Shown piece by piece: positions 29,481 to 35,201 of a DNA stretch of 64,000 nucleotides; position 1 is the stretch's first letter, and each line of letters begins with the position of its first letter. The DNA lies in NCBI GenBank assembly GCA_951406725.2, contig OX597842.1, positions 25,110,001 through 25,174,000 of the forward strand. Direction: 5' to 3'. Source of the stretch: Octopus vulgaris (Eukaryota). The notes below the pieces were generated by a model. The model was not told where the DNA came from. It did not search any database and saw only the letters and a list, made by a program, of their open reading frames with translations. A program made the position numbers and the translations under genes.

Positions 29481-32400
29481 TCATATGTTGTGGTGTGCGC
29501 TATTGCTCCATTCTAGTTTTCTATTCAGGCTAGGTTTATTTTCTATTATATGTGTAGCTTCTGTAATTTGTCTAATTGTTGCATCTGTTCTATGTGTGGA
29601 CAATATCTTAATCTCTATGTTATTGATTGATCCCCCGTGTTCTTGTTCGGCGTGTTGGTACAGAATCGATGAGCTTTTACCTTCCTTGAGTTGTCTCCAA
29701 TGTTCATTCACCCGCTCACCAATGCTTCTTGCAGTTTCCCCTACGTATGTTACTGTCTTGTTACTGCATCGTCCCTCTATACATCTTATACTATAGACCA
29801 CATTTCTGGCTTTACAGTTCGTTTGTGGGCTAAATCTACATACAGTGCAATAGTTATCCGTACAGAGAGTTCTACTAAAAGGATAGGTTCTACCAATTAT
29901 AGATCTGATAGGGTTGCCTGGCTTTTCAACAACCTTAATTCTTAGTTTAAGTTTATCTAGGGTCCTTCTAAAGCGGTACGCTAGTTCACCTCCAGGGGTG
30001 GTGTCAACGAACATGACACTCTGGTATTTATGGCTATCATACCAAGAGTTGGCCTTCCTTATTTTCTTTTTTGTCCTTTCTATAGTGTTCCATGACTTGT
30101 TCCTATAGAGTGGGCAAATCCCATTCCTATCATTACATAATATATTATCAAATTTCTTCATGGCTCCTTTGTATACTCTGATCCTTTCTTTATGGCTGTA
30201 ACCTGAGAACTGCATGCGGTGAATGAAATACTGTATGTGTCTCTTTAATTCTGTAGGCTCGCACATGCGTGACACATTTCTCATTATTCTGACGAGGTCT
30301 GCCATCAAAATATTGAATTTGGCATTGCCCGCAATGGCTGAGTTCCGGTGGATCAGGTATTTTGAGGCCATAGGTTTTGCATAGTATGAATGAAGGATTT
30401 GGGTTTTATTTTTCACAATTTCTAGCCAGAGTTCAGTGTCTAGTACTGGTAGTCTATGGTTGGGGTGTTTAGTGGGGTAGTCTATTGTGACCTTAATACT
30501 CTGGTGGATGGAGTTAGCTATTTGCTGGATGCTCTCCATAGTATTAGTTTCTATTACTATATCAACCGTACTCTCTTGTGGGGGTGCCTTTACTACTATA
30601 TTGATATCATCAACATAGCGAGAGTACATGTTTACGAGTATGGATTTCTGCAGTAGGCATTCTTTAAGCCTTCTGTCCCACCATACCATGAAGAGGTTGG
30701 CCACATCACCAGCGATACTAACACCGATGGCTGCCCCCTCGTCCTGGGCATATATTTTATTATTAAATTTAAATGTGTGGCCTTTTAGGGTAACTCTTAT
30801 ACTAGCTCCTAGTGCATGTGCGATCATTTTCTTTACCTGATGGACATTTGCGGGGCTCCGTATGGCTCTGGTCCATCCGCGCCATCTTTCTATATGTGTC
30901 TTCCTAGCCATAGAAGTAATTGTAGGCGGTCTACCTCTTAAACATCTACTGGGGCAGAAACTACTAAGATTATGTTTATCTAAGTATTCACTATTATATG
31001 TCAGTCTAAGTAGGAGGCCCAGTTCTTCTGTGTCGACATTACAGAACTCCACCTGGCTCTCGTTGATCATCTCCACGCACTTCTCCACTGCAAAATCTAC
31101 GTCAATCGATGGGTATAGGGATACCACATCCATGCTACCTACTATACATCCTGTCAAGTCACAAGTTTTGTTACAGTCACTGATCCTGCTTAGGAGATCT
31201 TCTGTGCTGTCACATACATCAGGTGACATCCTGATTATAGGGCGTATGATCATTGAGAGGAAGTAGGAGATTCTGTAATTGCTAGCGATATTCGCTCCAC
31301 AGACTGGTCTTGTTGGTGGTCCTGCTATAGGGTCAGTAAAACCTTTATGGTCCTTGCGAAGTCCATACAGTGCCGGGATATCATTGTTCCAGGCTTGGAA
31401 ATTCTTTGCAGTACGTTTCTGAGGTCCCAGAACAATTGTCCACATCATCATGTGGGCATTGAGGACCTTTTCTCTCTCCTCATGCGCCTGTACAGTTGTT
31501 ACTTTTGTATTGGCGATATGAGGTTGCATTGCCTGGATGTAGTTCGGTAAGCTGTCTATTGACATCCTGCCTGACTTATCCGTGGGAAGGCATATCACCT
31601 CTCCGTTCCTCGTGCGCTGAATGAGCTTCTGTAGGCCACATGCAGGTTTAATCCCTAGTTGTTGGGCATCTGTCTTATTCTGTCTCTGTCTCTTAATGTA
31701 TAAACCTAAAATCTGTCTAAGTTTGGTCCTAGCTATAGTGAACTGTGCTTCCATGTGGTCATTAGTACGTCTTGGGATGTATACCCTTTTGTTGAAGGGT
31801 AATGTTGTTGGATAAATTCGGTTCATGCAGTAAGTTTTGTCGCATACGTTGAAGAATTGAGTGTCAAAGGGATGGGTATACATGTCAATGGTCTCTCTAG
31901 GGTTATCTTCATTATCGTTACTGTTTCCAACATCAGCCTTCCTATTATTATTATCACCATTACCACTACTACTACTACTACTAGTATTCCTATTACCACC
32001 ACAACTATCACTACTATCCTCATTACTACTTCTACTGTTACCATCACCACTACTACTACCACTATTATTGTTATTACCTTTATTCCTACCATTGCCATTA
32101 TTACTATCATCGCTAGTGATATATTCATTGTTCCTGTTTCTGGTGTATGTGTTGTTTATATTAGTGTTGGGTTTTATGTCTGTCTGTTGGTCCCTGTCAA
32201 TCCCCTTGTTGCGGTCGTTATTTTTGTTCCTATGAATATTGTTATCTGTTTCAAGTCCGCTGACTCCCTGTCCAAGGATCCTGTTGCATTCAACTTTATT
32301 CTCCATCGTGACCCCTATGACACAACTTTTATTCGTGTCTTTGTGACTATGGCTATCTGTGTGTGTGTTTGTGTGTCGGTTCTCCCTATAATTGTTGTTG

Positions 32401-33128
32401 TTGTTGCTGTTGTATACGATTTTTCTCTCTCTGTTTGTGTTTTTGTTTTTGTATCTATTGTTTGTGTCTATGCATACATTTTTTCTATTGTTATTGTTGT
32501 TGTCGCTGTTAGGGTTCGTGTTGTTGTTGTTGTTGCCGCTGTTAGGGTTCGTGTTGCTTTTGTTGCTACGGTTGTTATTGTTGCGGTCATTATTGTTTGT
32601 GTTGTTGTTGCTGCGGTTAGTGTTTTTCGCGTTGTTGTTGTTGTCGCAAGTGTTGTTGTCATAGTATCTATTTAAATTCCAACGTATTTTTGTGAACGAC
32701 TTTTCAATCTCGGACAGGCATTTGATGGTATTCACTTTACTATACACTGCATACTTTGGTGGTAGTTGAAGTATCGATATTTCATCTGGGTCCGTTGTTA
32801 CTCCCCCATAGATGTTCGCTTCATTGTCTTTATTGAACTCTTCTGGTAGTAGCACATCTTCCATAATAATTCCATTTATTGTATCTGGATACTTCTGCTT
32901 TTCTTCCTTTGCGAGCTCATATTGACGTTTCTGTTTCAACCACGATAACTTCCTCTTAAAATGGATATTGCATTGGTGTATTACATGTCTGTTTTCTTCA
33001 TATATTATATCCATTATTAAGGTTTTCTCCTTTCGTGTGGTGATACTTTTAATTTCTTTTAAAAATATACGTTTACGCTTCTCTTGTTCGCTCAGCTCTC
33101 TGTATATTCTATTTCTAATATTTACCAT
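29481..33128 (-). CDS. PLE polyprotein: N-terminal domain with Asn/Ser-rich insert, reverse transcriptase, Cys-rich linker, GIY-YIG endonuclease (1215 aa)
   Basis: [51 protein letters not shown], CxxxxCxxC, VVYSIRC...YVGET, R..EH, H...EH, E, LN. Confidence 0.95.
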
Positions 33129-33304
33129 TAGCGTCCTTTTTAGTCTTTCCGCTTGTCCGTTAGTGAGGTCAAGCCGTTTAACGTTGGCTGTGACCTTGTT
33201 GATACATATCCTGGACGAGACACATTGTTTTATAAACGAAGCTTTGCGTTGTCACAGTTTTCTTAGTATATAGTGTTCTCAGCATCTGCAGGGCTGCTCA
33301 TTGA

Positions 33305-34295: not shown

Positions 34296-34340
34296 GGACC
34301 ACTGATGCGGTCACAGGAGTGTGACGAAAGAACTTTGGCC
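34296..34340 (+). ncRNA. Hammerhead-like motif in the inverted pLTR
   Basis: Exact reverse complement of 28921-28965. Confidence 0.6.
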
Positions 34341-34454
34341 GAAATAAGATTAAGATTAATGTAAAAAATAAATATCACTGAAGCAAAATAACACCAAATA
34401 TATAGTGCGTGTGTTTTTATTGGCTAAACTGGCAATATGACCATTCCGAAATAT

Positions 34455-34490
<36 letters not shown>

Positions 34491-35201
34491 TGTGTATAAC
34501 TATGTCTACTGTGTGTGTGTATGTATATGTTTGTGTGTGTGTCTATATGATGGGCTTCCTTTAGTTTCCACCTACCAAATCCACTCACAAGGCTTTGGTT
34601 GACCCAAGACTATAGTACAGACACTTACCCAAGGTGCCATGGAGTGCGACTGAACCTGGAACCATGTGATTGGAAAGCAAGCTTCTTACCACACAGTCAC
34701 ACAGTAGGACTGAACCTGGAACCTTTTGTTTGGAATACAAGCTTCTTGTTTCTTTACTGCTCACAAGGGGCTAAACATAGAGGGAAAAAACAAGGACAGA
34801 CAGAGGGATCAAGTCGATTACATTGACCCCAGCGTGTAACTGGTACTTAATTTATCAACCCCGAAAGGATGAAAGGCAAAGTCGACCTCAGCAAAATTTG
34901 AACTCAGAACGTAGTGGCAGACGAAATACTGCTGAGCATTTCGCCAGGCATGCTTACATTTCTGCCAGCTCGCCGTTTCTTACCACAAAGTCACACAGTG
35001 GGATAGAACCTGGAACCACGTGGTTGGAATGCAAGCTTCTTACCACACAGCCAAGCTTAAAAACAATGTTTAAGTACACATGCACGCACACACACACACA
35101 CACACACAAACACAAACACATACAAACACACACAAAAACACACACACAAACATACACACACAAACACACACACACATACACACACACAAACACACACACA
35201 C

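Follow-up and report, generated by a model that had tools for sequence, protein, structure and literature searches.

Hammerhead ribozymes in the repeats of Penelope-like elements (PLEs) are already known. In canonical PLEs they are near-universal, but their cutting is poor, and insertion could do without them in the only in vitro assay. Type I hammerheads of metazoan PLEs were described by Cervera and de la Pena (2014, PMC4209133), according to whom those with a short helix III cut weakly, as dimers formed through a palindromic helix III. Counting by hand the 56 PLE motifs in the supplement alignment of that study, we found A at position 9 in all 56 and a G inserted after it in one. This universality of A9 is partly built in, as the descriptor used there largely required it. 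Cleavage and insertion were studied in the Anolis Poseidon PLE PAc (Frangieh et al. 2024, PMC11167929). There, catalytic mutants of the hammerhead left insertion in vitro unchanged, uncut RNA was the main template, no RNA-seq reads ending at the hammerhead site were reported, and two internal start sites of reverse transcription give a one-sided tail. Naiad PLEs are reported to amplify without canonical hammerheads (PMC8557442). Against this background, the variant described here appears to be C9 as the majority allele of a repeat family.

A type I hammerhead motif in a Penelope-like element

The window, a stretch of 64,000 nt of Octopus vulgaris DNA analysed as a whole, contains two copies of one motif:

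34296–34340, + strand: type I hammerhead, flagged copy, in the inverted arm and antisense to the element ORF
28921–28965, − strand: its counterpart in sense orientation, lying behind the ORF; cleavage predicted between 28926 and 28925
34308–34309, + strand: C at core position 9, then an inserted G before G10.1 (28953–28952 in the sense copy; paralogues have A9)
34310–34325, + strand: helix II, six pairs, GGAG loop
34329–34334, + strand: helix III, two pairs, non-palindromic AA loop
34335, + strand: U17, predicted cut 3' of U17 (28926 in the sense copy)

The letters of 34296–34340 are those quoted by the first-pass annotation, and they are the reverse complement of 28921–28965. On the + strand, C3 lies at 34302, G8 at 34307, C9 at 34308, the inserted G at 34309, G12–A14 at 34326–34328, A15.1 to U16.1 at 34329–34334 and U17 at 34335. 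The three-helix topology is present, with an open helix I (three pairs, a bulge and two pairs) and the G10.1–C11.1 pair, and the strands of helix II (34310–34315 and 34320–34325) form six Watson–Crick pairs. The core residues C3 U4 G5 A6 N7 (here U7) G8, G12 A13 A14, A15.1–U16.1 and H17 are all in place; A9 is absent.

A descriptor that left position 9 free matched only the two arm sites on both strands of the 64 kb. Dinucleotide shuffling gave no match in 1500 versions of the 5665-nt element or in 10,000 versions of the 683-nt 3' region. The folding energy of the motif alone was unremarkable (z −0.85). Rfam returned no hammerhead match for the window or for the seven related loci described below; since it also misses relatives with canonical cores, its silence here is uninformative. 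An alternative helix of five pairs using a second GAAA at 34341 was rejected, as it would leave the motif without helix I. We conclude that 34296–34340 is a real type I hammerhead motif of a PLE. The first-pass annotation had placed such a ribozyme in the pLTR of a PLE, and fold, descriptor, shuffles and element layout bear it out.

The insertion and its open reading frame

The hammerhead occupies the pLTR; the sense copy reads 28965–28921, and the flagged one mirrors it. The insertion is made up as follows:

28798–29954, − strand: 3' arm, with ORF end, UTR with microsatellites, hammerhead and start codon
33305–34462, + strand: inverted 5'-truncated copy (inverted pLTR arm), no substitution relative to the 3' arm
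29481–33251, − strand: frame with RT, C-X4-C-X2-C linker and GIY-YIG, 1256 codons from stop to stop, first ATG at 33128
28744–28823, − strand: likely true ORF start (ATG 28823), running into a one-sided tail of 54 nt (28744–28797)
28697–28743: left (TA)n flank
34460–34487: right (TA)n flank

Framing the element are thus an inverted 5'-truncated arm, a tail of 54 nt present on one side only, and (TA)n at either flank. Inverted arm, one-sided tail and microsatellite flanks are the usual PLE layout (PMC8557442). Aligned with each other, the arms show no substitutions over 1153 columns and five small indels. Because of this, we regard them as products of one insertion event, and their identity, which had been offered as support for the motif, is therefore silent on selection. 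No other copy of the element was found inside the 64-kb window.

The RT, linker and C-terminal GIY-YIG motifs were recognised in the translation of the minus-strand frame. Pfam gave no domain match for the window protein; among 29 aligned relatives it gave weak RVT_1 matches in six and GIY-YIG matches in two. A PDB sequence search returned only two weak RT matches. The best protein database match, labelled Octopus vulgaris, was about 100% identical across the 531 residues searched, and there were 86 further matches.

The ORF had been described as intact. This does not hold, as its N-terminus is missing, cut at the inversion junction 33305, and the frame is interrupted upstream of the first ATG. 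Similarity to relatives extends to 33236–33239, upstream of that ATG, and in-frame TGA codons lie further upstream at 33254–33252 and 33281–33279. These two TGA, in the region 33305–33236 (− strand), lie within ten codons of each other in an otherwise open young ORF and may reflect a small lesion that shifts the frame, stops that were inherited, or selenocysteine; a SECIS search bearing on a selenocysteine reading of both codons gave no match. A profile built from the N-termini of five relatives matched the frame of ATG 28823 (E 2e-4 among six frames). Pairwise alignment of the tail peptide with relatives was not significant; only the profile was. Three family variants are listed in 28798–28823, all of them synonymous third-position changes. 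The true start is likely to be ATG 28823 in the terminal repeat, 102 nt past the predicted cut, and in a tandem array this start would place the hammerhead roughly 100 nt ahead of the start codon. The likely start and the first 27 codons lie within the terminal repeat and tail (28823–28744, − strand) and are mirrored at 34437–34462 (+ strand).

An Asn/Ser-rich low-complexity insert of about 250 codons (31900–32660, − strand) separates the N-terminal region from the RT; it is kept in frame and is missing in short relatives. The first 150 or so residues of an Octopus gene model (P0051, an F-box/leucine-rich-repeat protein) are 98% identical to the RT region of the element, which may reflect exonisation or a mis-joined model. 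Elsewhere in the window, a dispersed SINE-like repeat of 150–250 nt (76–86% identity) occurs at 34520–34700, where it adjoins the right end of the element, and in about ten other places. The window also holds a perfect inverted repeat of 560 nt (4209–4768 and 5422–5981, with a 653-nt spacer), a 99-nt tandem array at 17996–19482 with alternating unit types (a 198-nt higher-order repeat), and a 268-codon ORF (8791–9597, + strand) resembling a Tc1/mariner transposase.

C9 is the majority allele of the octopus family

Contigs from four of 24 listed runs were aligned to 461 nt around the sense copy, and the small-share runs X15–X20 were excluded. Three deep runs gave 8015–11,548 contigs and a shallow run gave 28. 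From these counts, the family likely comprises thousands of copies, depth sums not being copy numbers.

Across the four runs, A at position 9 made up 31, 18, 29 and 60% of summed contig depth (57, 75, 87 and 3 contigs), the remainder being C, and C at position 17 made up 77, 65, 79 and 26%; these shares are rough, as they come from short unitigs on a C9 reference, perhaps undercount A9, and leave positions 9 and 17 unphased. The three deep runs, which come from different studies, thus put C9 at 69–82% and U17 at 21–35% of summed depth, U17 being the minority allele in three of the four runs. The shallow run has the opposite allele shares. It includes one 124-nt contig that spans the motif and differs from it by one letter. 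Rough as the shares are, C9 is the majority allele of the family in the three deep runs and is not private to the window copy. A9 is presumably ancestral in the family.

One base of loop II and two outer bases of helix I also vary. At a threshold of at least 3%, no variants were listed for the paired part of helix II, the ten remaining core positions, helix III or the AA loop. The motif as a whole has 5 variable sites out of 45, against 25 of 295 in the flanks (p 0.57, a weak test in a young family), and its constrained sites have 1 of 25 against the same 25 of 295 (p 0.71, not significant). Among the entries listed, no pile-up of contig ends and no joint was seen at the predicted cut, which is a weak indication in DNA contigs. 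Loose contig ends at 28811–28823 suggest a sister family with a common start and a different A-rich leader.

The paralogue alignment proposed by the first-pass annotation points both ways. C9 is in the majority, but canonical A9 members exist, and these it had named as evidence against its reading. Its judgement that decay of this copy after insertion is unlikely stands, on the ground that C9 is the majority allele.

Hammerheads of related PLE loci

A metagenome scan gave 26 related loci. The 13 with at least 274 nt behind the ORF match were scanned for hammerheads; the other 13 had no usable 3' flank, and three of these were scanned with less than 70 nt. Seven of the 13 scanned loci carry a hammerhead, six by the standard scan and one (L008) by a looser scan only, and six do not (two of the six, L014 and L016, look like one element). 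A control of 115 kb of shuffled flank gave no motif match. None of 25 candidates among viral contigs was a relative, and two short matches in bacterial genomes were dropped as being at chance level.

The inserted G after position 9 is found in all seven relatives, hence in 8/8 motifs of the clade when the window is counted. Helix III is palindromic in every relative, and the window motif alone is non-palindromic among the eight. Position 9 is A in six relatives and C in one, L003; position 17 is U in four, A in two and C in one. The two features singled out earlier as departures from the consensus, C9 and the non-palindromic helix III, are therefore confirmed as such, with A9 in 56/56 published motifs and a palindrome in 7/7 relatives. 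The CUU site had been listed with them as non-canonical, which the counts do not sustain: U17 occurs in 24 of the 56 published motifs (PMC4209133 alignment) and in 4/7 relatives, and CUU itself in three of the 56. Judged by these sequence comparisons, the CUU site and the two-pair helix III are ordinary, and the real deviations are C9 and the AA loop.

L003 is a single metagenome contig with 46% protein identity, a 753-codon open frame and a (TA)n end. Its hammerhead (2497–2530) has C9 before the inserted G, a U3–A8 pair and U17. A tree of 12 rows, with one very long branch and low support in this part, did not group L003 with the window element. Given this separation of the two C9 carriers, weakly supported as it is, and the presence of A9 in the octopus family, two origins of C9 are likely. 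The hammerhead of L002 (4973–5020) contains a compensated U15.1–A16.1 swap inside its palindromic helix III.

Further likenesses were noted among these loci. The U3–A8 covariation in the core is seen in L003 (2497–2530) and L008 (2764–2800). Behind the hammerhead, L003 and the window element have in common a short stretch like GCGTG..TTTT.(A/C)A(T/A)TGG. L005 has an inverted layout of two hammerheads like that of the window element, near base 28 (−) and base 3159 (+).

Predicted cutting and competing explanations

In the hammerhead, A9 forms a sheared pair with G12, the general base (PMC11300833). In the same pair family of the hairpin ribozyme, adenine is reported to be best, cytosine not tolerated and all other bases tolerated (PMC6961537). 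By analogy, C9 should break the sheared A9–G12 pair that holds the general base. The isolated helix III homoduplex was calculated at +2.4 kcal/mol in the window, against −0.8 to −5.0 kcal/mol for four palindromic ones, and the AA loop is accordingly modelled to destabilise the intermolecular helix III needed for dimer cutting. Both changes predict much slower cutting, and the modelled structure argues against the C9 variant being functional.

The explanation we think probable, with real room for others, is that a weakened hammerhead became fixed in an amplifying master lineage and was copied onward, efficient self-cleavage probably being unnecessary for insertion. C9 and the AA loop, both likely to lower activity, would have arisen in that lineage, whose C9 copies kept multiplying. 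In line with biochemical work on PLEs, the RT-endonuclease would nick (TA)n, and reverse transcription would begin at two internal sites near the ORF start on uncut RNA. Two such start sites could give the observed ends at 28798/34462 and 28744, with the inverted arm derived from that RNA too. We favour this explanation because C9 and the AA loop predict slow cutting, yet C9 copies multiplied, and because insertion in vitro needed no cleavage. Conservation of the motif within the family does not exceed that of the flanks, which also counts for it, as a weak test. The recurrence of C9 before the inserted G in L003 and the compensated swap in L002 would rather fit a tolerated function, and the lack of variants at 3% in helix II and in the ten remaining core positions likewise counts against erosion, without reaching significance.

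These last observations lead to the possibility that the core is an active variant, which we consider doubtful. C9 would flip out and the inserted G would anchor G12 by a sheared G–G pair, the ribozyme cutting as a dimer or with protein help. CUGANG-C-G would then be a working core, one with two or more origins that any descriptor requiring A9 overlooks, a proposition we hold equally doubtful. The inserted G is found throughout the clade and in only one published motif, C9 occurs twice and each time before that G, probably by two origins, and a sheared G–G pair would be allowed by analogy with the tolerance of all bases except C in the hairpin ribozyme (PMC6961537). Naturally occurring core variants that retain genuine, if low, activity are also described (PMC3088659, PMC7151607). 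However, the cases number only two, one of them known from just one metagenome contig; A9 is retained in six relatives that have the inserted G; a shift of register does not repair the non-palindromic loop III of the family; and no signal of conservation was seen inside the family.

Less probable still is that C9 RNAs, which keep helix I, U16.1 and H17, act as substrates only and are cut in trans by the intact cores of supposedly co-expressed A9 paralogues in mixed dimers. This would draw on the dimer topology of double hammerheads, in which two motifs pair with each other. One core of a double hammerhead is reported to cut the partner strand (PMC4209133), each of the four runs contains A9 paralogues, and the substrate side is retained. 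Such cutting would nevertheless require rare RNAs to meet through the helix III predicted above to be unstable. Private decay of the window copy, or an assembly error, we regard as excluded in practice. Its two odd letters do differ from many paralogues and the copy has 5'-end lesions, but both C9 and U17 account for substantial shares of summed depth in the deep runs, which stem from separate studies, and the 124-nt contig of the fourth run carries the motif with one other letter.

The explanation by a weakened hammerhead in a master lineage and that by an active core have different consequences. If C9 is dead and C9 copies expanded, the element amplified in an animal germline without cleavage. 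If C9 does cut, the consensus for hammerheads has to be widened, and whole families escape searches that require A9. The octopus family, with A9/C9 and C17/U17 in likely thousands of young copies, is a natural allelic series on which the need for cutting can be tested.

Comparison with known systems

In the passages of the literature that were searched, we found neither a natural C9 hammerhead nor a measured rate for the A9C change; Lunse et al. (2017) deal with variants of PLE hammerheads and may include such cases. The nearest comparison is with rare natural changes at fixed core positions, mostly of low activity (Perreault et al. 2011, PMC3088659; the A6C study, PMC7151607). U3–A8 and U15.1–A16.1 are among those variants and occur also in the PLE clade of the window element. 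The octopus variant differs from them in holding the majority within a repeat family.

As in the metazoan PLE type I hammerheads of PMC4209133, the window motif lies in the pLTR and has an extra base between positions 9 and 10.1, a long helix II and a short helix I, and a second copy on the opposite strand is also known there. Its two-pair helix III with a 2-nt loop recalls the Drosophila, Marsupenaeus and Oikopleura motifs of that set. Its AA loop and inserted G set it apart from their consensus, in which helix III is palindromic and the inserted base is H.

With PAc (PMC11167929) the element shares a hammerhead near the ORF start, a one-sided tail and an AT-rich target. PAc has a working core shown to cut, whereas the core in the window deviates, its likely ATG lies 102 nt past the predicted cut and its linker is C-X4-C-X2-C. 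The element has the single ORF, with RT followed by C-terminal GIY-YIG, and the inverted arm with tail that characterise EN+ PLEs, and the C-X4-C-X2-C between RT and EN and the (TA)n on both sides that characterise Neptune and Nematis. It thus resembles the Neptune/Nematis-type EN+ PLEs (PMC8557442) in its C-terminal GIY-YIG, CX2-5CxxC linker, inverted 5'-truncated arm, tail and microsatellite target, a likeness in features; its tail is 54 nt, against 30–40 in those elements.
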